DNA of 64,000 nt from an uncultured Acidobacteriota bacterium (lineage in GTDB: Bacteria; Acidobacteriota; UBA6911), in contig CAWHCF010000002.1 in NCBI GenBank assembly GCA_963827655.1, forward strand, positions 96,001 to 160,000, written 5' to 3'. This document shows positions 5,096-57,842 of the stretch, piece after piece. The notes beneath the pieces are model-generated. The model saw only the letters and a list, made by a program, of their open reading frames with translations. It did not search any database and was not told where the DNA came from. Within the stretch, counting starts at the first letter, position 1. Each line of letters starts with the position of its first letter. The translations under genes were made by a program, and so were the position numbers.

Positions 5096-5194
5096 CTCTC
5101 AGGGCGGGGGACTGGCAGACCCGAGTCCGAGGTCCGAAGGACCGGCACTCTGACCGTGCCGCACCTTCGGCGCTCTTCTTAACGCACACCCAAT

Positions 5195-5245
5195 CCCGGC
5201 CTTACGGCCGGGCCTACTCTCTGTCGGCCTTTCAGGCCTCAACTG
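5195..5245. repeat. REP-like double hairpin
   Basis: cccggccttacggccggg plus ggcctttcaggcc. A reverse-complement partial copy lies at ~10292-10323 (gaggcctgaaaggccgacagagagtagg), with fragments at ~50044 and ~50260. Confidence 0.65.
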
Positions 5246-17404: not shown

Positions 17405-17585
17405 GGGGTTCTCGGTCCTTTTTGGCTCTATACGATCGGGGGGTCTGCGCAGTTCACCGGAAATTTCATTAACCACAAAGACGCGAAGACCCAAGGATTG
17501 TGTGACTGCTAATCAAGCGAAGTACTGATTGACAAGGGATACGATCGCGTCTTGGTGTCTTGGTGGTTGGCCTTTTTTCGATGGT

Positions 17586-33381: not shown

Positions 33382-33673
33382 AGTATCTCCTCTATAGATG
33401 TGAAGTCGTCGAACGGCGCTCCTTAGCGCGGCGCGAGCAACGCGTTGATTCCTTTCCTCCGCGGAGAGCACACAAGGAGTACCGGTGTGCCCCAATCGCT
33501 TCCCGCTTGCTGCCATTATGGCTAATCGCTACTGAATTTCGGCGTAGATACGCCGCCGAGTCACCAGGTCAGCGTGATCGGGACACCACCGAAGTTGAGC
33601 CAAATTTCGCGTATAAGTGTTTTTATCGCGAGCTCGTTTGAGAAGCAAGGGAAATTGAGGCGGGGTGTCTAAT

Positions 33674-33800: not shown

Positions 33801-36800
33801 TCAATTCAACACTACATTCGCCCTGCCGCCCGGCTGCCCATAGCCCGTCAGGATGATGGTGTTGCTATCCAACGGCAATTGAGACGAGATGTTGATACTC
33901 TTGACTTCACCATTACTCAGACCGACGGTTTGAAACAAACGTCCGTTTATGATGATTTCGATGTACAACACCCCGGGGCTCCCGTTTTGAATTCCTATGC
34001 TGCTCATGGTCGGGGGAATGTTGTCGAGGGTCAGGCTGACCGGCCTGCCTGATTCGGGGAGTTCCAGTAGCAGGCCCGCGGACGTTGCTGTCACGGTTAC
34101 GGTGAAGCTGCAGTTCGCCATGTTGCCGGCCGCGTCCGTGACCCTGAAGGTGTTGGTAGTGACCCCCACCGGGAAGGATGCACCGCTGGCCAGCCCGGCC
34201 GTCTGCATCGTGGTTGCTCCGGGACAGGCATCCGTGCCCACAGGCGCCGTGTAGGTGACCACGGCCGAGCCCGAGCCGGGCGAGCTTTCAGTCACAACTA
34301 TGTTGGCCGGGCAGCTGATCACCGGATTCTCCGTATCGATGACCGTCACCGTGAAGCTGCAACTCGTCCCGGCTCCGTTGGCGCAGGTTACCGTCGTTGT
34401 GCCGACGGGGAAGAACGAGCCGGAAGACGGCGTGCAACTCACCGGCCCGCAACCGCCGGTTACGGTCGGGGCAGGGAAGCTGACGATCGCTCCGCACTGG
34501 CCCGGGTCGTTCGGCACGGTGATGTTGCTTGGGCAACTGATCATGCAGGCCGCCGGAAGGATTGTCGTGACATCTGATGCCGTGTTGTTCGTGGTATTGA
34601 CATCCCCACCCCCCGAGACGGTCGCTGTGTTGGTCACCGATGGGGGTGCGTTGGGTGCAACATCCACCGTGAGTGTCACAGGGGGATAGCTCGCTGCGGG
34701 CGCCAGCGCGTCGCTTCGAGTGCAATTGACCATTGCGCCAGTGATGCCGCAGTTCCAGCCCGCTCCGCTCGCCGCCGTGGGAGTCAGCCCCGTCGGGACA
34801 GTGTCGGACAGGGTGACGGCGCCGCTGGTCGGCGAGCCGCCGCTGTTGGTCACGGTCACGGTAAATTCTGCTCCGGTCTGCCCCTGTGTGAAGTTGCCGG
34901 TGTGGCTCTTCATGAGGCTCAAATCCGGCGCCGACACCACCGTTACGGTGAAGCTGCAGTTCGCCATGTTGCCGGCCGCATCCGTGACCCTGAAGGTATT
35001 GGTAGTGACCCCCACCGGGAAGGCTGAACCGCTGGCCAGCCCGGCCGTCTGCGTCGTGGTTGCTCCAGGACAGGCGTCGGTGCCCACGGGCGCCGTGTAG
35101 GTGACCACCGCCGAACCCGAGCCGGCCGGGTTCTCGGTCGCAGTGATGTTAGCCGGACAGGTGATGGCCGGATTCTGCGTATCGTTGACCGTGACGGTAA
35201 AACTGCACGAGGCGTCCGGCGCCACGCCATTCGAGGCGGTGCAGGTTACCGTTGACGTCCCGACCGGGAATGCGTGCGGTGAGGTGATAGGGGTCGCGCC
35301 TATCCTGCACGTTACGGTCGGCGCCGGGCAGCCGGCCGTCGCCGTCGGCGGAGTAAAAGAGACCAATGCCGTGCACGTCCCCGGATCAGTGTTAACAGTC
35401 TGATTGGCCGGACAGGCCGAGATCGACGGCGGCAACTGCACCGTCATTGACGAGGTCTGCGTCCCGTTGTCCAGCGTCGCCGATACATTGCCCGTGTTCG
35501 GAGTCGGACAGGTCGAGCTGGCGGTGAACAAGGTCGCCGGCCATCAGGCTGCTCAGCGCCGCCGATCCGGGCGAAACGCTCCCCAGCCTGCCGCCGGCTG
35601 AACGTGATGGTCAGCCCGTTCAGCACTACCGGATTTATCGCCGCCCCATTTGTGTTCTGGCTCACGTTCGCCGTGAACGTCTGGGTCCCGCCCGGCGCGA
35701 GCGTCGCGCTGGCCGGCAGCAAGCGCAGGTCTATCCGGGGATCGGCGTCGAATGTCCCGCTGCCCGTCTGGCAACCCGCGGCTGCTGGGGAAGCCGTCGC
35801 ACCCCCACCAGTTGTTCTCCACGCTGGCCGTGCCGCCCGTCTGCCCGATGCCCGAGCCTGACGGCGCCGTATTGCTCACGATCCGGTTCAGGTTGGCCGT
35901 CAGCAAGCCGCTGCTGATAAACAGCGCCCCGCCCGCCACGGTCGCGCTGTTGCCGCTGATCGTGCAGTTGGTGATGGTCGTTAACTGATTGACAAAGGCG
36001 TTCGTCGTCGCCACTCCCCCGCCACTGTCCGACGCGTTGCCGCTGATCGTGCAGTTGTTGATCGTCAGCGGCGAGTTGGCCCCGTCTTCAATCCCCCCGC
36101 CTCTGGCATTCGCGCCCCGCCGTCGCGGTGTTATTGCTGATGGTCACACCTGACAGCGTGGTACTGCCCACCGGGTTCGCCGTTGAAGAGACCGCCGCCG
36201 TCGGCAGACGCGCCGGTTCCCTGCGCCGTGTTGCCTGTCAGGCTGCCTCCCGTCATGTTCACGGTCTGGCCGCCCACTCCGGCGATCAGTATCCCGCCGC
36301 CGTCCGACCCCGAAATGTTGCTCGAGATCGTGCATGTGTTGAGCGTGACGGTCCCGCCAAAACTGTGGCGTATGTTGATCCCGCCCCCGTTGGACCCGAT
36401 GTTGGCCGAGGTCTGGTTGCCTGTGATCGTGCTGTTGCTTATCGTCACATTATGCCGGTCAGCGAACAGATTGATCCCGCCTCCGGTCGCGACGCGCCGC
36501 TGCGGCGTTCAACGTGTCATTGTTCGAGATCGTGCTGCCGGTGATCTGAACCGTGCCCCGAAAAATATTGGTGCCTCCCATCAGATCGCCGCTGTCGATG
36601 TTGATCGCCCCGCCGTAGCTGTTCTGGTTGGCATTGCTGTCAAACGTGCAGTTGGTCACGGTCGTGGTCGGCCCGGGCATCGCTCCCGTGCCGGTCAGGA
36701 AGATATCCAGCGCTCCCCCGGTCTCGGTGAAGGTGCCGATCGTGGGGTTGTTGTTCCTGGTGAACCGAACCGTCAAACCCGAAAGGCTCACGCTCAAGGT

Positions 36801-38649
36801 CGAGAACGTCCCATCCTGGTTGATCCCGATTGCCTTGTCTCCCATGTTGCCCGTGAAGGCGGCATTGCTCGATCCCTGGATGATCGTGTTCGCGGCCCCA
36901 TTGCCCATGATGGTTATGTCCGAGTTGATGTCCAGGTCTCCGCTCGCGGCCGTGTTGTCATCGCCCACCTGCGTCAACTGGATCGGCACGCCGTTCAATG
37001 CGGCCGCGAACGTGATCGTGTCCGCGCCGGCATGAGCATTGGCTTCCTGAACCGCCGCGCGCAGGGAACAATTACCCCCCGAGTCGGCGCACGTGCCGTT
37101 GCCGGCGGCCGCATCATCCGTGTCAGCCGCGGTGTTGACGTTAAAGGCGGCGTGTGACTCGACTACCACGATCACGGGTTCCGGGTGGCTCTGTCGTAGC
37201 ACCACCAGACCAGGCCGCCCGTGCACGTTCAGCCGCATCGGCAGCGCCGCAACCGGCTGGCTATCGGCATCGAACGTGATCGCTTCCCTTCCCCCCGGCG
37301 ATGCTTCTTGCCCTGGCTGCGCGTCCTCCCTGAATGCCACCTGAAGTTGCCGCGCCCCGGGATTCACAACCAGCAGATCATGCGATTGCCGCACCCGATG
37401 CCAGCGTGCTCATCAGCAGCGGCTGCGCGCCGTCGCCTGCGTGCGTGAGGGTCATCGAGGTCCTCTCCGCCACCTCCCAGCTCAGTGCCCCGCTGGGTCT
37501 CGCCCCCCTCAGGTCTGACATCGGCCGGCTCCCTCGTCTCACTTCGGCTACAAGCTGCCGGCGCGCCCGAACCTCTTCCACAGTAAAGGGCCGGGTATCC
37601 AGCGTCCCGCGCGCCACGATCTGGACCGTGCCGTCCTCCGCCGCCACCGCCAGTTCCAGCCGCGCATCCCGATCCCAGATGAAATCGCTCACCGCCGCCG
37701 CTTTCACCCCAAACGGCAGTGCGATCGCCTCCAACTGCCCCGCTCGCTCATCCGGGACACTTCCGTACCCGGAGGCTTCATCATCCTCTCCGTGCAGTAT
37801 GTAGAGCCGGTTGCCCGCGATGATCGCCAGGTCCGTTGCACCATCCTCATCCAATCGCCCCAGGGTCACAAAGGTCGCCGCGGCCGGCAGCGGGTAGGTC
37901 GACGCCGCCTCCGCCGCGACACCCTGGTTCGCTTCATAAACCAGCAGCGCAGGCCCATCCGAACCTACGATCCCCACCACCAAATCCGCCCAGCTATCCG
38001 GCTGAGTCTTCTGCCCGGCCGCCATCGTCGTCAGCAGACCCGGCAACGGAACGGCCCTGGGCTCGTGGAATCCCTGGTTCCCGTCCCCACCCAGCAGATA
38101 GAGCGCCCCGCTTCCCCGCGCCCCTGTGATTATGTCCAGACGCCCATCCCGGTCGAAATCTCCCGTGGCCAGAAACTCCGGCGCTTCCGGCGTCCACAGC
38201 ACTGCCGCTTCGGGGAGAAACGGATCAGGATATGCTCCCTTGATGATGGACTGGATTGTCTCCGGTTTTGTCGGCCCATACGCTTCGGGATTGCCCAGGT
38301 GCAATGTCACCAGGCCTCCGCTCGCGCTGGCATACCCGCAAATCAGGTCCGGAAAACCGTCGAGATTGACGTCATCCGAGGCCAGCGACAGCGCCCGGAC
38401 CTGCCCTTGCTCCAGCGCCAGCAGGTTTCCGCCGTTCGTCAGCCCGGCCCCGGTATACTGCGCGCGCAAATCGCGCCCATTCCGAAAATGGATCCGGTAA
38501 TTGTTCTGCCCCCCGGCTCGCATCGTGATGGCGTCTTCGCGGGAGTCGGCCCTCGAGGCCAGGTACTGATTAGCGTCCACCAGGGCTCCAACGCTCGTGA
38601 GAACTAAAACCGAAAGGCCAAACGCAATCTTTGATGTGAGCCGCTTCAT
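33801..38649 (-). CDS. Giant exported protein B: FG-GAP-like, CSLREA, beta-helix, 2 HYR, DUF11, 2 HYR, small C-terminal beta domain; several frameshifts
   Basis: GGAGG RBS; signal peptide; DVNLDGFPDL and GDFDRDGRLD; CSLRAAVQEAN; FPVGTTTVTC HYR motifs; PDLSLMKSH. Reconstructed from six ORF fragments. Confidence 0.78.
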
Positions 38650-38745
38650 GATTTACCTCCAACGTACATCAGCGAAAGGCGCAAGACGAGTGCCTTGGGT
38701 CTCTCGGCAACTTCAGATTCTCACTCCCATGAACCACTAAACGCG

Positions 38746-41700
38746 CTAATCGGGAACCTGCGGAGCCTTCGAGGGGATGACCGGGACCGCGGTGAGTTGA
38801 GTCTGATACTGGGTCAGAGCGACGACGGCAAACGTCTTCCCTCCCTGCCCAACCAGGACCATCGACCCTTTGAATCTCAGTCGTGAGGGGAGGTATTCGT
38901 GCAGGAACCGTGCGACCTGGTGCAGAGGCCGGAGCGGGTTCAGCTCCGGCGGACTGAGCGTATCGGTGATCAATCCGTTTTCGTCGAGAACAACAAGTTT
39001 GATGTTGATGTTGTCGTTTCCGGAATTTGTGACGGCGAAGCCGGTGTAGCGGCTCTGCGTATTGTCGTTATCGACCACGATTGTGGCGGCATTGAGAGGC
39101 TGGCCGCCCAGAATCCCCGCCGCGCTCCTCAAGAGCCCGCCCTCGACCAACTGAAAGTAAGCGGCGCCGCTCAAGAAGCCAGCCGACGCTACCAGGCGAG
39201 CCGAACCGGTCCGCACGGGCTCCGAAGGTTCGACAGCCGAGATCTGCAGAATTCTGGTTCCACCGGGCGGAACGGAAAATGGAAAGGAGGAACCGGTCAC
39301 CTCTCTCCTCGGAAGCGAAGAGGGCCTGGCTGCCGGGGCGGAAGGATCGGTCAGAGAAACAGGAAACGGATTACCGTTCTGATCGGTGAGGATGAGAGTT
39401 CCGGTTGCCGCGACGGATCCGGTATTTGAGAGGAACAGGCCTGTCGAATAGCCCGCCCCCACTGTCACTTGACCGAACGTGTACGGCCCTCCGGCCACGA
39501 TCAGGGTCACGTCACTGGCCGACTCGCCGCCACCTTCGTCCCCGCCACCCGAGACCAATGCCACATTGGTGACCGCCCCCAGGGCATCCGCCGCAACCGT
39601 GACCACCAGCGTGATAGGCGGATAACGCCCTCCCGCAGCCAGCGGGTCGCTCCGGGTGCAGATGACGGTCTGGCCGTTGATCGTGCAGGGCCAGCCGGAC
39701 CCGAAAGCAGAAGTGGGTCGCAATCCTGCCGGGAGACTGTCTTCGACCTTCACCTGGCCGTCGGTAGCAACCTGGCCGGTATTAGAGACAGTGATCGTGT
39801 AGGTCGCGCCCGTTTGTCCCCGGGTGAAGATGCCCGAGTGCGTCTTGGTGATGCTGAGGTCCGGACGCAGGAAAAGGGTTTCGGAGTCTTCGGCCGTGTT
39901 GTTGGCAGGATTGGCGTCTCCGCCTCCCGAGACTCTGGCAATATTGGTCACCGTTGACCCAACCGGGATGTCGGGGGCGACATCTACCGTAAGGGTGACG
40001 GTGGGGTAGCTCACTCCCGGCGCCAGAACATCGCCTCGGGAACACGTCGCGGTTAGCCCGGAGACCTGGCAGTTCCAGCCTGTTCCGTTAGCCGTCCTGG
40101 CGGTCAAGCCGAGAGGCAGGTCGTCGACAAGATTGACAACACCACTGCTTGGCCCGACACCCCGGTTGGCCACCGTGATGAAAAAGATCACCCCGGACTG
40201 ACCCGGCCCGAAGCTGCTCGGATGGGTCTTCACGATCCTGAGGTCCGGGCCAACGCTGATGGTCACCGTGTCGCTTGCCGTGTTATTGCTTGAATTGACG
40301 TCACTGCCGCCGGCAACGCTCGCCGTGTTGGTTACCGATGAGGGGGCGTTGGGTGCCACATCCACCATGAGGGTGACCGGCCCGTAACTCGCTCCCGGCG
40401 CCAGCGGGTCGCTTCGCATGCAGCTGACCATTGCGCCCGAGACGCCGCAGGCCCAGCCCGGACCGCTCGCGGCGGTGGGAGTGAGTCCCGCAGGAACATT
40501 GTCGGCAAGGGTGACCGTGCCGCTGGTCGGGGAGCCGCCGGTGTTGGTCACGGTCAGGGTAAATTGTGCTCCGGTCTGCCCCGGCATGAAGCTACCGACG
40601 TGACTCTTGGATACGATCAGGTCCGGTCCGGGAAGGATAGTCGTAACATCGGTTGCGGTGTTGTTCGCGGCATTGACATCGCCGCCGCCCGAGATGGTCG
40701 CTGTGTTGGTTACCGATGGAGGGGCGTTGGGTGCCACATCCACCGTGATCGTGATCGGCCCATAGCTTGCTCCCGGCGCCAGCGGATCGCTTCGCGTGCA
40801 ATTGACCATTGAGCCCGAGACGCCGCAGTTCCAGCCCGCGCCGCTCGCTGTGGCTGGAGTAAGTCCCGAGGGGACAGCGTCGCTCATGGCTACGGAACCT
40901 GCGGTTGGCACGCTGCCGATATTAGCCACCGTTACCGTGAATATTGCTCCGGTCTGCCCCTGTACGAAACTACCCACGTGGCTCTTGGAGATGATCAGGT
41001 CCGGATCGGTGAGACCGAATGGCGTCGGAAGGAAGATTGTCGTCACATCCGTTGCGGTGTTGTTCGTGGTATTGACCTCGCCGCCGCCCGAGATGACCGC
41101 TATGTTGGTCACCGATGGAGGGGCGTTGGGTGCCACATTCACGGTGATCGTGATCGGCCCATAGCTCGCTCCCGGCGCCAGCGGGTCGCTTCGGCTGCAA
41201 TTGACCGTTGCGCCGGTGATTCCGCAGGTCCAGCCCGCTCCGGTCGCCGCGGTGGGAGTGAGTCCTGCAGGGACATCGTCGCTCATCGTCACGGAGCCGG
41301 CGGTTGGCATGCCGCCGCTGTTGGTCACGGTCACGGTGTATATTGCTCCGGTCTGCCCCAGCGTGAAATTACCCGCGTGACTCTTGGAGATGATCAGGTC
41401 CGGTCCCGGAGTGATTGTCGTGACGTCCATCGCGGTGTTGTTCGTGGCATTGATATCGCCGCCGCCCGAGATGGTCGCTATGTTGGTCACCGATGGGGGG
41501 GCGTTGGGTGCGACATCCACCGTAAGGGTGACTGGCCCGTAACTCGCTCCAGGCGCCAGCGGGTCGCTTCGGGTACAACTGACAAGGGCGCCGATCATTC
41601 CGCAGATCCAGCCGGCGCCGCTCGCTGCCGTGGGAGTGAATCCCGCAGGAACATTGTCCATCAGGGTGACGAGACCGCTGGTCGGGGAGCCACCGGAGTT

Positions 41701-44700
41701 GGTCACGGTCACGGTAAATTGCGCTCCGGTCTGCCCCGGTGTGAAACTACCCACGTGACTCTTGGAGATAACCAGGTCCGGCCCCGGAAGGATTGTCGCG
41801 ACATCTGATGCCGTGTTGTTCGTGGTATTGATATCGCCGCCGCCCGAGACGGTCGCTGTATTGGTCACCGACGGGGGGGCGTTGGGTGCAACATTCACCA
41901 TGAGGGTGACCGGCCCGTAACTCGCTCCCGGCGCCAGCGGGTCGCTTCGGCTGCAATTGACCATGGCGCCGGTGATTCCGCAGGTCCAACCGGCGCCACT
42001 GGCCATTGTGGCGAATGAGACCCGTCGGGACACTGTCGGCCACGGTGACGGCGCCGCTGGTCGGGGAGCCGCCGCTATTGGTCACGGTCATGGTAAATTG
42101 TGCTCCGGTCTGCCCCTGCACGAAATTACCCGCGTGACTCTTGGAGATGATCAGGTCCGGCCCCGGAGTGATGGTCGTGACATCGGTTGCGGTGTTGTTC
42201 GTGGTATTGACATCGCCGCCGCCGGAGAGGGTCGCTATGTTGGTCACCGATGGGGGGGCGTTGGGCGCAACATTCACCGTGATCGTGACCGGCCCGTAAC
42301 TCGCTCCCGACGCCAGCGGGTCGCTGCGAGTGCAATTGACCGTTGCGCCGGTGACTCCGCAGTTCCAGCCCGTGCCGCTCGCTGCCGTGGGAGTCAGTCC
42401 AGTCGGAACGCTGTCGACCACAGTGACGGCGCCGCTGGTCGGTGAGCCGCCGCTGTTGGTCACGGTTACGGTAAATTGTGCTCCGGTCTGCCCCTGTATG
42501 AAGCTACTCGCGTGACTCTTGGAGATGATCAGGTCCGGCCCCGGCGTGATGGTCGTGACATCGGATGCGCTGTTGTTTGCGGTATTGACATCGCCGCCGC
42601 CGGAGACGGTCACTGTGTTGGTCACCGATGGGGGGGCGTTGGGCGCGACATCCACGGTGATCGTGACCGGCGCGTAACTCGCTCCCGGCGCCAGCGCGTC
42701 ACTGCGGGTGCAATTGGCCGTTGCGCCGGTGAGGCCGCAGGTCCAGCCCGTGCCGGTCGCCGCGGTGAGAGTCAGTCCCGCAGGGATAGTATCGACCAGG
42801 GTGACGGCGCCGCTGGTCGGAGAGCCGCCGCTGTTGGTCACGGTCACGGTAAATTGTGCTCCGGTCTGCCCCTGTATGAAATTACCCGCGTGACTCTTGG
42901 CGACGGTCAGATCCTGCCCCGGAATGATGGTCGTGACATCGGATGCGGTGTTGTTCGCGGTATTGACGTCGCCGCCGCCCGAAATGGTCGCTGTGTTGGT
43001 CACCGATGGGGGCGCGTTGGGTGCAACATCCACCGTGAGTGTCACAGGGGGATAGCTCGCTGCAGCCGCCAGCGCGTCGCTTCGAGTGCAATTGACCATT
43101 GCGCCAGTGATGCCGCAGTTCCAGCCCGTTCCGCTCGCCGCCGTGGGAGTGAGTCCCGTCGGGACAGTGTCGGACAGGGTGACGGTGCCGCTGGTCGGCG
43201 AGCCGCCGCTATTGGTCGCCGTCATGGTGTAGGTGGCTCCCGTCTGCCCCTGTCTGAAGTTGCCGGTGTGGCTCTTCGTGAGGCTCAAATCCGGCGCCAA
43301 CACCACCGTCACGGTGAAGCTGCAGTTCGCCATGTTGCCGGCCGCGTCCGTGACCCTGAAGGTATTGGTAGTGACCCCCACCGGAAAAGCGTTACCGCTG
43401 GGCAGCCCGGCCGTCTGCGTCGTGGTTGCTCCAGGACAGGCGTCGGTGCCCACAGGCGCCGCGTAGGTGACTACCGCCGCGCCCGAGCCGGGCGGGTTCT
43501 CGGTCGCAGTGATGTTAGCCGGGCAGGTGATGGCCGGATTCTCCGTATCGTTGACCGTGACGGTAAAACTGCACGAGGCGTCCGGCGCCACGCCATTCGA
43601 GGCGGTGCAGGTTACCGTTGACGTCCCTACCGGGAATGCGTGCGGTGAGGTGATAGGGGTCGCGCCTATTCTGCACGTTACGGTCGGCGCCGGGCAGCCG
43701 GCCGTCGCGGTCGGCGCAGTAAAAGAGACCAATGCCGTGCACGTCCCCGGATCAGTGTTGACCGTCTGATTGGCCGGACAGGCCGAGATCGACGGCGGCA
43801 CCTGCACCGTCATTGACGAGGTCTGCGTCCCGTTGTCCAGCGTCGCCGATACATTGCCCGTGTTCGGAGTCGGACAGGTCGAGCTGGCGGTGAACAAGGT
43901 CCCGGCCATCAGGCTGCTCAGCGCCGCCGATGCGGGCGAAACGCTCCCCAGCCCGCCGCCGGCGAACGTTATGGTCAGCCCGTTCAGCACTACCGGATTG
44001 ATCGCCGCACCGTTTGTGTTCTGGCTCACGTTCGCCGTGAACGTCTGGGTCCCGCCCGGCGCAAGCGTCGCGCTGGCCGGCAGCAAGCGCAGATCTATCC
44101 GCGGGATCGGCGTCGAATGTCCCGCTGCCCGTCTGGCAACCGGCGGCATTGGGGAAGCCGTCGCACCCCCACCAGTTGTTCTCCACGCTGGCCGTGCCCC
44201 CCGTCTGCCAGATGCCCGAGCCTGTGGGCGCGGTATTGCTCACGATGCGATTCAGGTTGGCCATCAGCGAGCCACTAACGATAAACAGCGCCCCGCCCCC
44301 CAGGGTCGCGCTGTTGCCGCTGATCGTGCAGTTGGTGATGGTCGTTAACTGATTGACAAAGGCGTTCGTCGTCGCCACTCCTCCGCCAATGTCCGACGCG
44401 TTGCCGGTGATCGTGCAGTTGTTGATCGTCAGCGGCGAGTTGGCCCCGTCTTCAATCCCCCCGCCTCTGGCATTCGCGCCTGCCGTCGCGGTGTTATTGC
44501 TGATGGTCACACCCGACAGCGTGGTACTGCCCACAGGGTTCGCGTTGAAGAGCCCGCCGCCATCGGCCTCCGCGCCGGTTCCCTGCGCCGTGTTGCCTGT
44601 CAGGCTGCCTCCCGTCATGTTCACGGTCTGGCCGCCCACTCCGGCGATCAGTATCCCGCCGCCGTCCGACCCCGAAATGTTGCTCGAGATCGTGCATGTG

Positions 44701-47017
44701 TTGAGCGTGACGGTCCCGCCAAAGCTGTGGCGTATGTTGATCCCGCCGCCGTTGGACCCGATGTTGGCCGAGGTCTGGTTGCCTGTGATCGTGCTGTTGC
44801 TTATCGTCACATTATGCCGGTCAGCGAACAGATTGATCCCGCCCCCGAACGCCGACGCGCCCGCTGCGGCGTTCAACGTGTCATTGTTCGAGATCGTGCT
44901 GCCGGTGATCTGAACCGTGCCCCGAAAAATATTGGTGCCTCCCATCAGATCGCCGCTGTCGATGTTGATCGCCCCGCCGTAGCTGTTCTGGTTGGCATTG
45001 CTGTCAAACGTGCAGTTGGTCAGGGTCGTGGTCGGTCCGGGCATCGCTCCCGTGCCGGTCAGGAAGATATCCAGCGCTCCCCCGGTCTCGGTGAAGGTGC
45101 CGATCGTGGGGTTGTTGTTCCTCGTGAACCGGACCGTCAATCCCGAAAGGCTCACGCTCAAGGTTGAGAACGTCCCATCCTGGTTGATGCCGATCGCCTT
45201 GTCTCCCATGTTGCCCGTGAAGGCGGCATTGCTCGATCCCTGGATGATCGTGTTCGCGGCCCCATTGCCCATGATGGTTATGTCCGAGTTGATGTCCAGG
45301 TCTCCGCTCGCGGCCGTGTTGTCATCGCCCACCTGCGTCAACTGGATCGGCACGCCGTTCAATGCGGCCGCGAACGTGATCGTGTCCAGCGCCGCGCATG
45401 AGCATTGGCTTCCTGAACCGCCGCCCGCAGCGAACAATTACCCCCCGAGTCGGCGCATGTGCCGTTGCCGGCCGCCGCATCATCCGTGTCAGCCGCGGTG
45501 TTGACGTTAAAGGCGGCGTGTGACTCGACTACCACGATCACGGGTTCCGGGTCGGCTCTGTCGCAGCACCACCAGACCAGGCCGCCCGTGCACGTTCAGC
45601 CGCATCGGCAGCGCCGCAACCGGCTGGCTATCGGTATCGAACGTGATCGCTTCCCTGCCCCCCGGCGATGCTTCTTGCCCTGGCTGCGCGTCCTCCCTGA
45701 ATGCCACCTGAAGTTGCCGCGCCCCGGGATTCACAACCAGCAGATCATGCGCTTGCCCACCCGATGCCAGCGTGCTCATCAGCAGCGGCTGCGCGCCGTC
45801 GCCTGTGTGCGTGAGGGTCATCGAGGTCCTCTCCGCCACCTCCCAGCTCAGCGCCCGCGTTGGGTCTCGCCCCCCTCAGGTCTGACATCGGCCGGCTGCC
45901 TCGTCTCACTTCGGCTACAAGCTGCCGGCGCGCCCGAACCTCTTCCACAGTAAAGGGCCGGGTATCCAGCGTCCCGCGCGCCACGATCTGGACCGTGCCG
46001 TCCTCCGCCGCCACCGCCAGTTCCAGCCGCGCATCCCGATCCCAGATGAAATCGCTCACCGCCGCCGCTTTCACCCCAAACGGCATTGCGATCGCCTCCA
46101 ACTGCCCCGCTCGCTCATCCGGGACACTTCCATACCCGGCCGCTTCATCATCCTCTCCGTGCAGTATGTAGAGCCGGTTGCCCGCGATGATCGCCAGGTC
46201 CGTTGCACCATCCTCATCCAATCGCCCCAGCGTCACAGAGCGTCGCCGCGGCCGGCAGCGGGTAGGTCGACGCCGCCTCCGCCGCGACTCCCTGGTTCGC
46301 TTCATAAACCAGCAGGGCAGGCCCATCCGAACCTACGATCCCCACCACCACATCCGCCCAGCTATCCGGCTGAGTCTTCTGCCCGGCCGCCATCGTCGTG
46401 AGCAGACCCGGCAACGGCACGGCCCTGGGCTCGTGGAATCCCTGGTTCCCGTCCCCAGCCAGCAGATAGAGCGCCCCGCTCCCCCGCGCCCCTGTGATTA
46501 TGTCCAGACGCCCATCCCGGTCGAAATCTCCCGTGGCCAGAAACTCCGGCGCTTCCGGCGTCCACAGCACTGCCGCTTCGGGGAGAAACGGATCAGGATA
46601 CTCTCCCTTGATGATGGACTGGATTGTCTCCGGTTTTGTCGGCCCATACGCTTCGGGATTGCCCAGGTGCAATGTCACCAGGCCTCCGCTCGCGCTGGCA
46701 TACCCGCAAATCAAGTCCGGAAAACCGTCGAGATTGACGTCATCCGAGGCCAGTGACAGCGCCCGGACCTGCCCCTGCTCCAGCGCCAGCAGGTTTCCGC
46801 CGTTCGTCAGCCCGGCCCCGGTGTACTGCGCCCGCAAATCGCGCCCATTCCGAAAATGGATCCGGTAATTGGTCTTTCCCCCGGCTCGCAGCGTGATGGC
46901 GTCTTCGCGGGAGTCGGCCCTCGAGGCCAGGTGCAGATTGGCGTCCACCAGGGCTCCGACGCTCGTCAGAACGAGAACCGAAAGGCCAAACCCAATCTTT
47001 GATGCGAGCCGCTTCAT
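38746..47017 (-). CDS. Giant exported protein A: FG-GAP-like, CSLREA, beta-helix, 2 HYR, 10 DUF11, distinct C-terminal domain; several frameshifts
   Basis: Starts MKRLASKIG with the same N-terminal modules as protein B; ten PDL/QDL-xxxK(S/T)H repeats; C-terminal FGQVTVGAGYSTGLFLSN domain. Reconstructed from seven fragments. Confidence 0.78.
39500..43296 (-). repeat. Coding tandem array of ten DUF11-type domains, ~378-bp period
   Basis: Repeated GQTGAQFTVTVTNSGGSPTSG...CTRSDPLAPGASYGP...SGGGDVNTTNNTA; shadow ORFs at 42330 and 42708 are 378 bp apart. Confidence 0.85.
42925..47017. repeat. ~4.1-kb near-identical direct duplication of ~34555-38649
   Basis: Long stretches match base for base at an offset of ~8368 bp (e.g. 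35401 ff vs 43768 ff; 37561 ff vs 45928 ff), with scattered substitutions. Confidence 0.9.
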
Positions 47018-47031
47018 ATGGACGGACTTAA

Positions 47032-48044
47032 CTAGTAGACGATTCTTGGTGTTTCTTCGTGTCTTCGTGTCCTGGTGGTATTTGTTTCTGCTCTTGCCTG
47101 CGCGAGCAGCACGGTTGAGGCGACCGCCGGAGAGTAGGACTTCGCTTCCTGCGCCTGATCGTTTGAAAGCGTTGCCGTCCAATAGTTGCTGGCTTCGGTG
47201 AGCGTGAGCTTGAATTCGACGTCGCCCTGTTCTTCCCTGAAGGGATTTACTCTATAGATGACAGGCGACCAGCTGGTGGTTTGTCTGGTCGTCAATCGGA
47301 CACCGCCGGTCAAGGTTGCCTCTGCCCAGACGGCAAAACAATTGATCTGATTTGTGTCTCGCAGCTTCCAGCGGGCCGTCAGGTTATTCAGATTCGGGGG
47401 TGATTTGTCGGCGGTCAGATCGGCTCGTACGAGCTCCTGCGGTTCGCTCAGAAGCTTAAGCCTGTCTCGGTTGGTCAATCCGAGGGGATGGTTCAGAAGG
47501 AGCGACTCGAAATAGCCGATATTCGACCGGAATGCCTGCCGGGAGTCCCCGGCGGTTCTGATCGAGATGACCGCCGGCGGCAACCAACGCGACTGAATCG
47601 GGAATCAGCACACCGCCCGGTTTCAGAAATCTCTCGCGGGCGTCGATCATGATGGGAACGATCGTGTTCATCGAAGACCAGGCTGCCCATAGTTTCCGAA
47701 ATGACGACGTCGAATTCGCGGTTGAGTTGAACCTGTCTGGAATCCCCCTGAATGACCTCCACGCGGCTGGCCACGCCATTGTCGCGGGCAAGCGTTCGAA
47801 TCAGCCCGATCAGTAGCTGATCCTGTTCGATCGCCACGACCCTTCGGGCTCCCAACGCGGCCGCCGCGATAGCCCAAACGCCGGTCCCCGATCCGATATC
47901 GAGCACGCTCGATTCGTCGCTGATAGTCTTTTTCAGGGCGCGGTAAAACAGCCGGTTTCTATTGGCATCGCTGAGAAGCTTTTCGTGTCCCGCCAGAAGC
48001 TGATTTACGTGGTCATACAATCTGGCTTCGGCATTATTCTCCAC
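47032..48044 (-). CDS. Class I SAM methyltransferase, protein-arginine-methyltransferase-like; frameshifts near 47665 and 47575
   Basis: HEKLLSDANRN, VLDIGSGTG, VVAIE, FDVVISETMGSLVFDE, ARERFLKPGGVLIP, TTSWSP; GTG start at 48044. Confidence 0.78.
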
Positions 48045-48137
48045 ACATTCCCTTCTGAGGGCTCGATCCTGGTGCTTCGTCTGAGAAATACGAAACAAAT
48101 ACCGCAAAGACCGAAAGACACCAAGAAACACCAAGGG

Positions 48138-48662
48138 TCAACCCCTTGGCGGAAAGATTCCCTGCAGGGCGATGATGAAATTCAGGACGACGTAAGGCGA
48201 CATGTTGTTGTGCGGCTGACTTGAACCCGTCACAGCAAACGCCTGAGGACTCATCGTCGTATTTGGCGCAGCGGCAAAAAGCATTGGCGGCGTTCTGCCC
48301 GGCAGAGACGACCACGCCCGGCCCGTGGGAGATGCCTGGTTTCCGCCCCCCACGGTGGCTCCCACAGGATGTCCGTGCGCGGGCATTTCCGACTCGAGGA
48401 GGGTCACAGATGACGAACCGCCCTGTTGGCCCAGGTCGTAGATGCTCAAGCCGGCACCCTGGCCCTGATGGATCGGCACGCTGCCTTGCAGGTTGGGCAG
48501 GCCGAAGGTTGTCCTGCCGTCACCACCGTAGGTGGTCCCCAGGAGTGAAAACAGCGCCGTGTTCTGTGAGATTGACATGAGCTGGCCGTCACACAACGCC
48601 CAGCCCTTCGGTGCGAAATTGAATCCGACGATTCTGATTTCAGCGACAAATGGATCGCTCAT
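48138..48662 (-). CDS. Phage tail collar domain protein (COG4675/MdpB-like), copy 3
   Basis: MSDPFVAEIR, GWALCDGQLMSISQNTALFSLLGTTYGGDG, HGH, QPHNNMSPY, GIFPPRG. Confidence 0.92.
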   Translation of the reverse strand: MSDPFVAEIRIVGFNFAPKGWALCDGQLMSISQNTALFSLLGTTYGGDGRTTFGLPNLQGSVPIHQGQGAGLSIYDLGQQGGSSSVTLLESEMPAHGHPVGATVGGGNQASPTGRAWSSLPGRTPPMLFAAAPNTTMSPQAFAVTGSSQPHNNMSPYVVLNFIIALQGIFPPRG

Positions 48663-48676
48663 GGTCTCTCCTTGTG

Positions 48677-49171
48677 TCAGTTCCGCGACGGGAATATCCC
48701 AACCAGCGCGATGACGAAATTGATGACGAGGTAGGGCTGCGTGTTTTCGTGGGGCTGGCCTCCTCCTGCCGGAGCATCTAATGTCTGATTCATCATACCG
48801 TCCGACTTGGACGAATACGATCCGGGCAATGCAGCCCAGACGCCGTTTGCCGGGGTTCCCTGGGTCGGCGCGAGCGAGCTGGCCTGCGCGACGTGCGTGT
48901 GAGCGGGCATCTCGGACATGATCAGTGTGTGAGCCGCCTCGCCCCCCTTTGCGCCCTGCGTCAGGCCGCTGCCCATATGCACGGGAGAGCAGCCCCGGAG
49001 GTCCGGGAGAGCGAAGGTGGTCTGTCCATTTCCGCCGTACATCGTTCCCAGCAGCGAAAAGAGCGCCTGATTCTGGTTGATGGGGAGCAACTGGCCATTG
49101 CACAATGCCCAACCTTTGGGGGGGAAATTAAAGGAAACCATCTTGACCTCGCCTAAGAATGCTTCCGACAT
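48677..49171 (-). CDS. Phage tail collar domain protein, copy 2
   Basis: MSEAFLGEVK, GWALCNGQLLPINQNQALFSLLGT, HTH, QPHENTQPY, GIFPSRN. Confidence 0.92.
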   Translation of the reverse strand: MSEAFLGEVKMVSFNFPPKGWALCNGQLLPINQNQALFSLLGTMYGGNGQTTFALPDLRGCSPVHMGSGLTQGAKGGEAAHTLIMSEMPAHTHVAQASSLAPTQGTPANGVWAALPGSYSSKSDGMMNQTLDAPAGGGQPHENTQPYLVINFVIALVGIFPSRN

Positions 49172-49267
49172 GGTTGATTTCTCCTTCAGAATCGCTTCAG
49201 CTTTCAGCGATGAGTTTAATGAGCCTCTGAAACCGGTCTGACCCTGATCACGGAATGCCGGTATTCC

Positions 49268-49777
49268 TTAGTTCTGAGACGGGTAAATCCCCTCCAGCGC
49301 AATGATGAAGCTTATGACGAGGTACGGCATCATGTTGTCGTGCGGCTGGCTTCCGCCGTCGTTCTTCATGCACGCCGAACTCATCACATTAGCGGTGGGT
49401 GGTGAGTCGCTATAGATCGTCTGGTTTGAAGCAGAGGCTGCCCACACGGCGTTCTGCGGAGACCCCAGTTCGCCAGCCGTAGATTTGCATTGCGGCGGGT
49501 GTGCGTGAGAAGGAATCTGTTGAGTGGTCAGCGTAACCGACTCTACCCCGCCCTTCTGGCCTATCGTGAACCCGCTGCCTTGATGGATTGGAATACGACC
49601 CTGAAGATCGGGCAACGCGAAGGTCGATTGGCCATCGCCTCCGTAAGTAGTGCCTATGAGCGAAAAGAGCGCGTCGTTCTGCGAAATCGGGAGCAGTTGC
49701 CCGCTGCAGAATGCCCACCCCATAGGCGCAAAATTCCCGCCAAACATCCTGATTTCACCAATAAAGGGAGTAGACAT
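49268..49777 (-). CDS. Phage tail collar domain protein, copy 1
   Basis: MSTPFIGEIRMFGGNFAP, SQNDALFSLIGTTYGGDG, HAH, QPHDNMMPY, GIYPSQN. Confidence 0.92.
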   Translation of the reverse strand: MSTPFIGEIRMFGGNFAPMGWAFCSGQLLPISQNDALFSLIGTTYGGDGQSTFALPDLQGRIPIHQGSGFTIGQKGGVESVTLTTQQIPSHAHPPQCKSTAGELGSPQNAVWAASASNQTIYSDSPPTANVMSSACMKNDGGSQPHDNMMPYLVISFIIALEGIYPSQN

Positions 49778-50140
49778 AGCCGTTCTCCTCTATTTTGAGT
49801 GCCCTGTTTTCGTTGTCTTGGTGCCCAAGTGGTTAGTTTTTGTTCCGCCCGCTAACCACAAAGACACGTAAAACGCCAACACTAGTCGGATTGAAAATGC
49901 TCAGCCGGGGGAAGGGCTTTTCAGCCGGGGGAAGGGCTGTTCTGCTACGCAAGCACAACCGCAACTGATAAAGTGGCCGGATTCTAAACTTCGGCCAGAT
50001 GAGAGTCAACAGATTATGCTGTTAAAAAACTTTTACAGAGTCGAGTAGGCCCGGCCATGAGAGGCTGTTGCAAAAAACTCAGCTCTACCCTCTAATGCGG
50101 CTGCAGACACTTTACGAAGCCTCATGTGGCGACGGGTCAC

Positions 50141-50260
50141 TGAGACCGTCGCAAGTAACGTGATCGGGAGGATTTGGCCTTAAAAAGTTCTTTCGTGCCA
50201 CTAGCGGGCCGGACGGGCTTGATAGCCCGTCCGCACATGGGGTCGTTTTGCGACAGTCTC
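50141..50260. repeat. Small inverted-repeat element carrying a REP-like hairpin
   Basis: gagaccgtcgcaa ... ttgcgacagtctc ends. Internal ccggacgggcttgatagcccgtccgcaca (50209-50237) recurs exactly at 63509-63537. Confidence 0.6.
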
Positions 50261-50294
50261 GCAAGGCCGGGATTAGACGTGCATCAGTAACCAA

Positions 50295-50782
50295 CTAAGT
50301 TGGGCGCCACTCCATTAATACCTGGATGCCGTTGTCTTCTCGCGCAGAGAAGCCCAGCCGCGCGAATAAACGCTGCGCCCGGCATCACGATCCACGTAGA
50401 TGCTGAGCGCCCTCGCGCTTCCGGCCGCTTCGGCCATCAAGGCTTTGATCAGCGGGGTGCCGATCCCAAGGCCGCGGTGTGCCGGCAGCAGCGCGATATC
50501 AAGGATGCGGATCTCCTGCGCGCGCCGGTCGACATAGAGCCGCCCCACCGGCTGGCCGTTGTTCAGGATGACGTGGTGCTCCGCGTCGGGATACTCACTT
50601 TTGTAGAACCGCTGCTGCGCCGCGAACTGGAACCGGATGAAGGCGGCGCGCTGCGCCTCGTCCCAGGGCACGAGCGCCAGTTCCTCGGCGCGCGTGCCGG
50701 CGTAAACGGCGCGGAGAAACTCCTCGTCCTCGGCGCGCACCGGGCGCAAGCTTACGGCATTGGCATCACTGTTGGTTGTCAT
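50295..50782 (-). CDS. GNAT N-acetyltransferase; frameshift near 50378
   Basis: LRPVRAEDEEFL, YAGTRAEEL, QFAAQQRFY, DIALLPAHRGLGIG. The alternate frame restores AQRLFARLGF...LMEWRPT*. Confidence 0.85.
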
Positions 50783-51087
50783 GGCTCCGCCTTGCGCTTG
50801 CGATTGAACACCGCCTCGTAGGTCAACCCCTCGTCGTCCCTGGCGATCGGCACCAGGAAGAGCCGGCCGCTGCCCAGCTGTTCGTGCCGCAATTGATAGA
50901 GCCATTGCTCGGGGGGCGCCTCGAGCGGCGCGCGGAAGGTGAGCAGAAACTGCTCCTGGCGCGGCGATGGCGATTTATCTTCGACGCTGATCAGTTCGAT
51001 CTCCAGCGTCGTGTCTTCATTGAGCCGCATCTGGAATCGGGTGTTGACGTGCGGAGCGAAATCTTCGTAGTGCAGGGTGTCGAGCAT
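50779..51087 (-). CDS. DUF6916-like small beta protein
   Basis: LHYEDFAPHVNTRF, FLLTFRAP, YQLRHEQLG, LFLVPI, YEAVFN; overlaps both flanking GNAT genes. Confidence 0.78.
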   Translation of the reverse strand: MLDTLHYEDFAPHVNTRFQMRLNEDTTLEIELISVEDKSPSPRQEQFLLTFRAPLEAPPEQWLYQLRHEQLGSGRLFLVPIARDDEGLTYEAVFNRKRKAEP

Positions 51088-51575
51088 CAGGGTTCTTCTC
51101 CTATGGTTCTCCGGGACGGCTGCCATTCCATCAAGTAGTACAAGCCGATGTCGGCGAGCGGCGTAAATCCCAACCGCCGGTAGAGCCGCTGCGCCGGATT
51201 GGACTTCTCCACGTGCAGCCGCACCGGCTTGCCCGACCGCGCCGCCTCGTCGAGCAACTGTTGAAGCAGCGCAGCGCCAATTCCCCGCCCGCGCCATTCC
51301 GGCAGCAGCGCGATATCCACCAGGCGGATTTCGTCCGCCAGGCGGGAAACCAGCAATCGGCCGATCGCGCGATCCACCTCGACGATGATCTGCGGGTCGG
51401 CGTTCGGGAACTCGGCGTAGTGGGCCTGCTGCGCGCGGAATTGCAGGCTCAGGAAGGCTTCCTGCTGCGCGCTGCTCCAGTCCAGGGCGGCCAACTCCGC
51501 GGCACGGGTGCTGGCGTAGAGCCGATAGAGGAACGGTTCGTCTTCGGGCAGGGCGGGACGCAGCGTGACGATCAT
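51087..51575 (-). CDS. GNAT N-acetyltransferase
   Basis: LRPALPEDEPFL, YASTRAAEL, QFRAQQAHY, DIALLPEWRGRGIG, NPAQRLYRRLGF. Confidence 0.88.
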   Translation of the reverse strand: MIVTLRPALPEDEPFLYRLYASTRAAELAALDWSSAQQEAFLSLQFRAQQAHYAEFPNADPQIIVEVDRAIGRLLVSRLADEIRLVDIALLPEWRGRGIGAALLQQLLDEAARSGKPVRLHVEKSNPAQRLYRRLGFTPLADIGLYYLMEWQPSRRTIGEEP

Positions 51576-51793
51576 AACTTGATGATCTGTTTGAGTAGTT
51601 GCCTGGGGGACGCGCGGCGCATCATGCGGTAAAGCGGCGACATTTGTCAAAGCCGAAACAAATACCACCAGGACGCGAAGACACGAAGAAACACCAAGAA
51701 TTTTCTTGACAATACCCCCCGGCACACACCGAATCCTAGCCGGGGATCGAGCAAATCTGAGTGCAGCAGTCTTTTTCATTCGGAGGTTGTCCG

Positions 51794-55218: not shown

Positions 55219-55285
55219 GGAAACAAATACCGCCAGGACACGAAGACACGAAGAACCTGATGCTTTTCAATTGGAGGCTGTGAAT

Positions 55286-57573: not shown

Positions 57574-57842
57574 GCGGTAGCAAGTTTCGCCCCGGAGGGG
57601 CGACGGAAATTAGCCCCGGGCAAGCGAAGCGCAGCCCGGGGTTTCGGGGTTTATAGTCTATGCGCCCTGAAGGGGGCGCAGGAGCATTGAGCGGCAGCAC
57701 CCAGCGCCACCTCCGGGGCGCTTTTCTTTGCTTGTGTGTGACCGGGGGCAGCGCTCCGCTTGCCCCCCGGCTAATTTCCTTCGCCCTTTCAGGGCGCGAG
57801 CTGGCGTAACCATTCAGGTTCACAGCAAGCTACCGCACTCCA
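57574..57842. repeat. Nested BIME/REP-like palindromic cluster
   Basis: cgccccggaggggcg-ggaaattagcc-ccgggcaagcg at 57588 ff mirrors cgcttgccccccggctaatttcc-cgccctttcagggcg ending ~57796; enclosed by gcggtagc...gctaccgc. Confidence 0.7.

Follow-up and report, generated by a model that had tools for sequence, protein, structure and literature searches.

The locus described here is a cassette of three tail-collar genes accompanied by genes for acetyltransferases, a DUF6916 protein, a methyltransferase and two giant surface proteins. It lies on the minus strand of a 64,000-nt stretch of DNA, hereafter the window (contig CAWHCF010000002.1, positions 96,001 to 160,000, GenBank assembly GCA_963827655.1), from an uncultured Acidobacteriota bacterium of the lineage UBA6911. 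The genome comprises 8.18 Mb in 53 contigs, with a G+C content of about 59%. Open reading frame (ORF) calls and Pfam matches confirmed the gene content claimed in an initial annotation made from the sequence alone: nine genes, all in one orientation, run from 51575 down to 33801 (Table 1). The cassette is real, conserved and non-phage.

Table 1. Features of the collar cassette, with positions in the window.
Feature	Position	Strand	Family match and remarks
GNAT1	51087..51575	-	PF00583, E 1.7e-13; 162 aa; RimI-like N-acetyltransferase
DUF6916 protein	50779..51087	-	PF21880, E 1.8e-25; 102 aa
GNAT2	50315..50782	-	PF00583, E 4.6e-9; second acetyltransferase
GNAT2-Col1 intergenic region	49778..50314	-	Interspersed repeat, hairpin, tandem 18-nt direct repeat, promoter-like site
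Col1	49268..49777	-	PF07484, E 1.2e-29; 169 aa; paralogue type A1
Col2	48677..49171	-	PF07484, E 1.1e-27; 164 aa; type A2
Col3	48138..48662	-	PF07484, E 7.5e-28; 174 aa; type A3
Class-I methyltransferase, PrmA/PRMT-like	47032..48134	-	PF06325, E 4.5e-13
48-nt interspersed repeat	47041..47088		Between conserved methyltransferase part and giant A
Giant A	38746..47017	-	About 2750 aa if read through
Giant B	33801..38649	-	About 1615 aa if read through

The stop codon of GNAT1 and the start codon of the DUF6916 gene share bases (TGATG), as do the DUF6916 stop and the GNAT2 start (ATGA), and GNAT2 and Col1 are held apart by a gap of 538 nt that contains an interspersed repeat. Spacings of 3 to 14 nt separate Col2 from Col3, Col3 from the methyltransferase gene and the latter from giant A. 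The DUF6916 gene and the three collar genes are the sole copies in the 8.18-Mb genome. DUF6916 was present in one of 60 relatives searched, and thus the cassette is patchily distributed. Contigs of an RNA library (run X10) span the collar genes and join Col3 to the methyltransferase gene; DNA carry-over is possible, and these contigs give no expression level.

The three collar proteins matched PF07484 (cut-off 24 bits) with 102.4 (Col1), 96.2 (Col2) and 96.7 (Col3) bits, and their sequence matches in the PDB were phage fibre tips only (8kec, 7e-8; 9qgo; T4 gp12, 1ocy). The domain derives from phage tail fibres. A quick tree was built from 156 collars of 52 loci, with loci L007 and L032 omitted for their fragmented matches. 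It resolved three ancient types, here A1, A2 and A3, and most loci have one of each. Gene position changed eight times on this tree, against a minimum of two and a mean of 74 after shuffling, and none of the 200 shuffles was as low. Type A3 was the last of the triplet in 47 of the 52 loci (exceptions were L017, the L042/L053/L058 lineage and L028), and positions 1 and 2 were swapped in the window, L006, L009 and L013. In the alignments an HxH motif and a C-terminal H..N motif were invariant in all three types and the approximately 50 residues between them varied. Collar identity across phyla was 55–69%. Inspection by eye revealed no signal peptide in unfused collars. The Col3 type retains the N-terminus MSDPF which, speculatively, would suit N-terminal acetylation after removal of the methionine. 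The three ancient paralogue types, together with the single-chain fusions described below, indirectly support a predicted 1:1:1 collar complex; a complex prediction of Col1, Col2 and Col3 with DUF6916 as partner, run without controls, scored 0.25 against a mark of 0.32 and weighs neither for nor against it.

Related loci were collected in three surveys. The first, seeded with DUF6916, yielded 59 loci (L003–L061) from Acidobacteriota, Actinomycetota, Xanthomonadales (including Stenotrophomonas maltophilia and Dyella), Mesorhizobium, Sphingomonas, Bacteroidota, Rhodothermota and Verrucomicrobiota. The second was seeded with the Col3 alignment and comprised the best 80 of at least 585 relatives, and the third, seeded with the fused protein P0060, added 78 new loci. 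A giant was counted when an open frame within 1.5 kb reached 1300 aa, or 850 aa if it ran off the contig; full flanks means at least 4.5 kb on both sides, and these frames are not gene calls. The phyla named as carriers include Acidobacteriota, Pseudomonadota, Bacteroidota, Actinomycetota, Bacillota, Chloroflexota, Verrucomicrobiota, Planctomycetota, Gemmatimonadota and Eremiobacterota.

Collar genes occurred in threes. At least three were found in 53 of the 59 loci of the first survey, the other six being truncated by a contig end no more than about 650 nt away, and in tandem in 80/80 loci of the second, with six in four loci, seven in L065 and nine in L083. The third survey comprised 74 unfused tandem triplets and four single-chain fused forms. 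A GNAT gene was present in 58/59, 65/80 and 63/74 (unfused) loci of the respective surveys, and DUF6916 in 47/80 (tblastn, E ≤ 1e-5; both genes in 44/80) and 40/74. The co-occurrence of triplets with GNAT and DUF6916 genes, stated in the initial annotation, was borne out by counts. Neither gene was found at the four fused loci (0/4 each). L083, from a Gemmatimonadales metagenome-assembled genome, and L147, from IMG/VR, hold three triplets (nine genes) per locus, and two triplets each were observed in L065, L067, L070, L084 and L098.

The same annotation had placed such triplets beside large exported repeat proteins in diverse bacteria, and this also holds. A giant frame was detected in 47/59 loci of the first survey and, with full flanks, in 39 of 41, the exceptions being L007 (fragmented frames, with an FG-GAP homologue) and L060. 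Under the strict rule the second survey gave 52/80, and 31/41 with full flanks; lowering the threshold to 800 aa raised the count to 61/80. In the third, a frame of at least 800 aa lay within 1.5 kb of 51 of the 74 unfused triplets. As a baseline, stop-to-stop frames of 1300 aa or longer number 15 in the 8.18 Mb of the genome under study and make up 0.9% of the sequence, and the adjacency of triplet and giant is far above chance. The giant gene was divergent from the collar genes in 43 loci, downstream on the same strand in 30 and upstream on the same strand in 24, with median gaps to the nearest collar gene of 88–305 nt. One carrier is doubtful as to host: L037, on contig00022 of Bacillus subtilis SK7B5, has a cassette of the Xanthomonadales type with a giant frame, groups with Dyella and is probably a contaminant contig.

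In the window, giants A and B begin, by eye, with the same signal-peptide-like N-terminus. Giant A comprises a signal peptide, FG-GAP, a CSLREA-type beta-helix, two HYR domains and about ten DUF11 repeats, and contains a 378-nt repeat family; giant B, after a shared part of 4.1 kb, has four HYR and one DUF11. Elsewhere, Pfam annotation of 88 neighbour ORFs from 13 loci and of 20 further giants yielded Big_9, Cadherin-type, He_PIG, HYR, Flg_new_2, FG-GAP, DUF11/DUF7933 and beta-helix domains, and not one family of phage origin. The anchor of the giant tracks the envelope of the host: an autotransporter beta-domain in Arenimonas, Dyella, Mesorhizobium and S. maltophilia, Por_Secre_tail of the type IX secretion system (T9SS) in Dyadobacter and Sphingobacteriales, SLH in Paenibacillus and RTX in Nocardioides. 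An N-terminal module of Big_9 plus about 270 aa, here module X, was found in about 45 giants, the CSLREA-type beta-helix of the window in 17 other collar-adjacent giants, and a third class consists of He_PIG autotransporters. A search for a docking domain common to all giants found none: module X and the beta-helix are unrelated (hhalign probability 0.4) and the Xanthomonadales autotransporters have neither.

Collar clades track the class of giant across phyla. In the module-X type, Dyadobacter collars group with those of Blastocatellia and actinobacterial loci; in the autotransporter type, Mesorhizobium collars group with Xanthomonadales. Locus L062 has the same nine-gene set as the window (two GNATs, DUF6916, methyltransferase, Col1–Col3 and two FG-GAP giants), with the tandem FG-GAP pair coming after the triplet, and the gene order of L063 is as in the window.

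Neither giant is a single open frame in this assembly. According to the ORF listing, giant A is split across at least five frames and giant B across at least four, so that the two very large signal-peptide proteins of the initial annotation are real, but not as uninterrupted genes. The methyltransferase gene, compared with its intact homologue in L063, aligned in frames -3, -1 and -2. Giants A and B are paralogues with 96% identity over the first 4.1 kb, and differ there by 16 single-base indels in G/C-rich contexts. On contig C8 of the same genome (77700–86155), rpoB and rpoC each run across two reading frames, and for this reason the frameshifts of the locus are likely assembly errors. Contigs from other soil metagenomes lack the extra bases at the giant A frameshift sites 45388, 45395, 45553 and 46240/1. 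These contigs may derive from relatives or from the paralogue (no run contained more than 0.17 of the sampled words) and therefore cannot prove the true sequence of the strain; they do not bridge the methyltransferase stretch 47512–47602. The indels in the methyltransferase gene and in both giants are most likely assembly errors, and the three genes are probably intact in the organism. The splits in rpoB and rpoC also imply indel errors throughout the genome, so that apparent pseudogenes of this assembly are untrustworthy. Two further cases were observed in the window. A duplicated MacB_PCD/FtsX (ADOP-type) permease gene at 14935–17494 (-) is split into two overlapping frames, probably by another assembly frameshift. 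Directly downstream of giant B, a multi-pass membrane ORF (31771–33516) overlaps a Ser/Thr kinase ORF (30414–31841) on the minus strand, and the two (30414–33516) may be one frameshifted membrane kinase gene.

Natural fusions were sought among longer collar homologues, of which 1220 were obtained at E ≤ 1e-10 and the best 120 examined. All except P0011 have two or three collar modules per chain; P0011 (795 aa, with an AT-rich-looking sequence) has nine collar motifs, three times three, and no heads. Long modules could be typed in 13 of the 120, in the order A1-A2-A3, which is the gene order of the window. Circularly permuted short triple collars made up 77 of the 120; an N-terminal extension was present in 68 of these 77, as was an Arg-rich, PEP-CTERM-like end (68/77), and PF07589 was matched in 16 of the 120. 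In P0119 (1391 aa) the triple collar stands between HYR and Big_9/Cadherin domains. The fused triple collar P0002 was predicted as one compact fold (predicted local distance difference test, pLDDT, 87.9; predicted template-modelling score, pTM, 0.84), whose only fold matches were phage fibre tips (8kec, gp12 and gp37). These fusions argue that the three paralogues would form one trimer-like unit, and that such a unit may be combined with adhesin domains. The signal peptides and PEP-CTERM ends, and the position of the collars of P0119 among extracellular domains, indicate that the fused collars work outside the cell.

GNAT1 and GNAT2 matched PF00583 (cut-off 20.7 bits) with 51.3 and 37.0 bits, respectively, and are 46% identical to each other (tblastn). 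The nearest NCBIfam family is rimI (TIGR01575), of which they are not members (46.9 and 26.1 bits, cut-off 86.4), and the PDB sequences nearest to GNAT1 are N-terminal acetyltransferases and RimI. The DUF6916 protein matched PF21880 (cut-off 27 bits) with 89.3 bits over positions 1–91 of 91, and the motif FLVPIARD was invariant in an alignment of 34 sequences. Its AlphaFold2 model (pLDDT 93) is a six-strand beta-barrel with an N-terminal helix. Foldseek gave no match at E ≤ 0.001 in the PDB or BFVD, and an atlas search with DUF6916 returned DUF6916 clusters only. In VIA-align the best Z scores were 7.3–7.0, for the N-domains of MrkH and YcgR and for PP4397; all were below 8 and may reflect a common beta-barrel arrangement alone, and an assignment of function from fold matches was dropped. 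Three of the five longer DUF6916 homologues (P0121, P0122 and P0124) are GNAT-DUF6916 fusions, which point to DUF6916 as a putative partner or targeting domain of the acetyltransferase. The remaining two were set aside: P0123, half a DUF6916 with Big_9 on a 2.3-kb contig, is a possible assembly chimera, and the weak spermidine-synthase-like domain that P0125 carries beside DUF6916 fell under the Pfam cut-offs. A second DUF6916 gene, often inverted, lies near the first in several loci, acidobacterial and other: L005, L011, L012, L015, L062, L074, L090, L093, L114, L125 and L135.

The methyltransferase is not a member of the PrmA equivalog TIGR00406 (44.3 bits, 183 required), and Pfam PrmA covered only its Rossmann part (49.8 bits). 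The initial annotation listed it with the system, of which it is not a general member. A methyltransferase of the window type was found in three of the 80 collar-seeded loci (L062, L063 and L090), and the gene is a lineage-specific addition at a few acidobacterial loci. In two other soil runs, contigs lead from position 47086 or 47063 straight to 48115, which connects the end of Col3 with the 48-nt repeat and omits the methyltransferase gene.

Interspersed repeats accompany these genes. The 48-nt element, rich in CACGAAGA, gave 465 blastn-short matches in the genome, and inverted copies at 51655..51701, upstream of GNAT1, and at about 55220–55255 place the stretch from GNAT1 to the methyltransferase gene between inverted copies. 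In four unrelated soil metagenome runs this element showed a pile-up of depth with loose ends on both sides. The repeat in the GNAT2-Col1 gap, of about 110 nt (50153–50260) and with a GGACGGGC...GCCCGTCC hairpin, had 122 genome matches, and it is followed by the tandem 18-nt direct repeat near 49905–49940. A promoter-like site, TTGACT-17-TAGAAT, is located at 50009..49981, and a terminator-like hairpin at 48151..48129, 3' of Col3; the scan for such signals was not above chance (two promoter sites, 1.4 expected). No Rfam match was obtained within the locus. Elsewhere in the window, matches to the small RNA Acido-Lenti-1 occur at 5194–5239 (+) and 57588–57641 (-), with 39.3 bits against a gathering score of 37, and TonB-type receptors with CarboxypepD_reg are encoded; both features are indicative of Acidobacteriota.

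Regarding phage genes, the 25 large ORFs examined in the window matched no phage family of Pfam, and the 34 window ORFs outside the locus matched no PHROG of the head, tail, connector or integration categories, as had been stated for capsid, terminase, sheath, tube, baseplate and integrase genes. The window contains no tRNA gene. The sheath, tube, baseplate and spike genes of tailocins and extracellular contractile injection systems (eCIS) were absent from the window and from the 88 neighbour ORFs of the 13 related loci. PADLOC-DB 2.0 returned no match for the collars, GNATs or DUF6916, and for the methyltransferase a generic one (mad2, 56 bits). In IMG/VR, among the best 80 of 297 relatives, 65 had one collar match (the ordinary tail-fibre form), five had two and ten had three or more. 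Six of these triplet contigs were scanned with PHROGs, and no capsid, terminase, sheath, tube or baseplate gene was detected. The homologous triplets collected here occur in cellular, non-phage surroundings. Three IMG/VR loci (L142, L149 and L150) have a GNAT gene and an integrase gene 2.5–4 kb from the triplet; L149 also has DUF6916, and in L150 a frame of 1563 aa follows the triplet. In L144 (882–8906), three consecutive collagen-like tail-fibre genes (533, 474 and 489 aa) precede two triplets, which could represent a heterotrimeric collagen shaft with heterotrimeric tips.

The reading we prefer is that of a non-phage cassette in which a collar heterotrimer, matured by GNAT-DUF6916, partners the adjacent giant adhesins; its chances of being correct are about even. 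The three collar paralogues would assemble 1:1:1 into a small heterotrimer resembling the receptor-binding tip of a phage tail fibre in its collar, its HxH metal site and its variable head; this heterotrimer would serve the neighbouring giant adhesin-like protein or proteins as a ligand-binding or capping partner. The RimI-like GNAT, with DUF6916 as partner or targeting domain, would modify a protein of the system, most plausibly the collar subunits, which are synthesised with no signal peptide, and in this acidobacterial lineage a PRMT/PrmA-like methyltransferase would have been added. The data show the genes, how they are conserved, what neighbours them and how they are fused in nature; from these we infer the heterotrimer, which protein the enzymes modify, a surface position for the unfused collars and a part in adhesion or in recognising targets. 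A more specific version, in which domesticated fibre tips form a heterotrimeric, N-terminally modified cap or co-receptor and GNAT-DUF6916 matures a signal-peptide-independent route to the surface, is tentative and rather less probable. The surface-structure system proposed in the initial annotation is partly supported: the non-phage contexts and the co-occurrence are as it foresaw, and the fusions back a trimeric unit, placement at the surface and a tie to adhesin domains. Modification of the collars by the GNAT or methyltransferase, arrival of the unfused collars at the surface and a role in attachment, biofilm formation or targeting are predicted.

Several observations weigh against the proposed partnership of heterotrimer and adhesin. 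The unfused collars, DUF6916 and the GNATs all appear, by eye, to be without signal peptides, and autotransporter, Sec and T9SS pathways move unfolded or signal-bearing proteins, so that a cytoplasmic trimer has no evident way to meet a surface adhesin. The giants have no universal domain and belong to at least three unrelated classes, and hence a common docking site is not evident. Three loci with full flanks, L081, L109 and L127, lack any neighbouring frame that reaches 800 aa. In the collar-seeded survey, 15/80 loci had no GNAT, and in 33/80 tblastn at E ≤ 1e-5, a threshold that may miss some, detected no DUF6916. The counts overstate independence, since many of the loci are kin (34 come from Xanthomonadales). 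As the best 80 matches were kept, the surveys sample near relatives of the cassette only, and the sample includes only four fused loci.

In the chief rival reading, a cytoplasmic collar heterotrimer acts on the giant before export, as a holdase, in quality control or as a scaffold for modification, and GNAT-DUF6916 and the methyltransferase modify the giant itself. Cytosolic methyltransferases are known to modify some surface adhesins. None of the collars, DUF6916, the GNATs and the methyltransferase has a signal peptide by eye, GNAT and DUF6916 genes accompany unfused triplets only (0/4 fused loci, 63 and 40 of 74 unfused), and an adjacency independent of the class or secretion route of the giant fits a generic role. 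However, fused triple collars carry signal peptides and PEP-CTERM ends (68/77 permuted forms), P0119 sets a triple collar among extracellular adhesin domains, and the fold is that of a receptor-binding tip with a variable head. A role before export is judged unlikely.

The cassette and the giants might alternatively be functionally separate, neighbours through shared islands or variable surface-gene regions, with collars that are lectin-like or similar to RhiB and MrpB. The patchy distribution (DUF6916 in 1/60 relatives), the integrases near three of the IMG/VR triplets and the lack of a common domain in the giants speak for separate functions, as do RhiB and MrpB, which are described as single collar genes without giants (PMC6969944, PMC3328848). 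Adjacency is nevertheless found in many phyla, with unrelated classes of giants, at short distances (88–305 nt) and often on the same strand; moreover, collar clades track the giant class across phyla, and in P0119 the two are fused directly. Separate functions are a fairly improbable explanation.

A competition module would consist of a released bacteriocin or targeting factor similar to a fibre tip, with GNAT and/or DUF6916 providing self-protection. Tailocins reuse phage fibre tips, acetyltransferases act as immunity in some peptide-antibiotic systems, and the distribution of the cassette is patchy and transferred-looking. The cassette, however, has no killing domain, lysis gene or export gene, its collars, with 55–69% identity across phyla, do not resemble fast-evolving toxins, the fused forms carry PEP-CTERM anchors and are not released, and PADLOC recognised none of the collars, GNATs or DUF6916, all of which makes a competitive function improbable. 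That the locus is what is left of a degenerate prophage, tailocin or eCIS, its tail-fibre genes spared by chance, is very hard to maintain: the collar domains and best PHROG matches are of tail or tail-fibre families and several genes look frameshifted, but no phage structural or integration gene occurs in the window or the 13 annotated loci, different phyla keep the triplets, their order and the accessory genes, the frameshifts are of a kind with the errors that affect rpoB, rpoC and the assembly as a whole, and single collars outnumber triplets 65 to 10 among the best 80 IMG/VR relatives.

Four testable rules come out of this analysis: collars come in threes, one of each ancient type; a giant lies next door; GNAT and DUF6916 act as a pair; and the single-chain forms undergo export and anchoring. 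With these rules, three uncharacterised families become open to direct tests of function, also in cultured carriers such as Dyadobacter alkalitolerans DSM 23607 (L045), Paenibacillus eucommiae DSM 26048 (L066) and several Dyella strains. The results suggest an accessory layer for giant adhesins, which are important in attachment and biofilms, and document a domestication of phage receptor-binding parts distinct from that of tailocins and injection systems. Proteins of COG4675, the group of stand-alone collar proteins, are common in soil bacteria without an assigned role, and they appear in a soil metaproteome (PMC5579227). If the cap or co-receptor version were true, it would add to surface recognition by bacteria a general layer that had not been seen before.

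No description of the bacterial system and no mention of DUF6916 was found in the literature searched, supplementary files being outside the scope. Among known systems, tailocins and eCIS are comparable as bacterial reuse of phage tail parts, but the cassette is without sheath, tube, baseplate and spike genes, as determined for the window and 13 annotated loci. Giant adhesins with accessory genes are similar in that the neighbouring giants share their type Va autotransporter, T9SS, RTX or SLH anchors and their Ig/cadherin-type repeats; for these systems no collar-type accessory proteins were found in the literature searched. The closest bacterial proteins are RhiB and MrpB, stand-alone collar-domain proteins of COG4675 ('microcystin-dependent protein'). 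RhiB, encoded by rhiABC of Rhizobium leguminosarum, is listed under COG4675 (PMC6969944), mrpB of Microcystis is co-transcribed with mrpA, rhiABC is under N-acyl homoserine lactone (AHL) control, and MrpB resembles RhiB, its function being unknown according to that review (PMC3328848). As described there, and set apart by these descriptions and not by sequence, each is a single collar gene that has a RhiA/MrpA-type gene as its partner and is not part of a triplet, with no reported link to GNAT, DUF6916 or a giant adhesin.

Phage fibre tips (T4 gp12, 1ocy and 5iv5; gp37, 2xgf; cyanophage A-1(L), 8kec) share PF07484, the HxH motif and a C-terminal strand returning to the collar. They terminate long homotrimeric fibres on a baseplate, whereas the cassette, in its cellular setting, encodes three short paralogues that stand alone and have no shaft. 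The most similar arrangement is that of virophage DSLV2, in which three consecutive collar genes encode proteins of about 19 kDa that co-purify 1:1:1, look like 16-nm fibres and bind Synechococcus (PMC12724248, J Virol 2025). This binding of cyanobacterial cells by a heterotrimer calls for an update of the earlier statement that stand-alone collar proteins have no demonstrated function. DSLV2 and the bacterial cassette have in common three consecutive collar genes of similar sizes (about 170–180 aa in the virophage type), and the DSLV2 heterotrimer, with its collar and variable head, binds to the cell surface; its proteins differ in being virion parts, said to sit on the capsomer. The bacterial cassette, compared with DSLV2 by arrangement and not by sequence, has no virion genes, adds GNAT, DUF6916 and, in this lineage, a methyltransferase, and stands beside giant adhesins.

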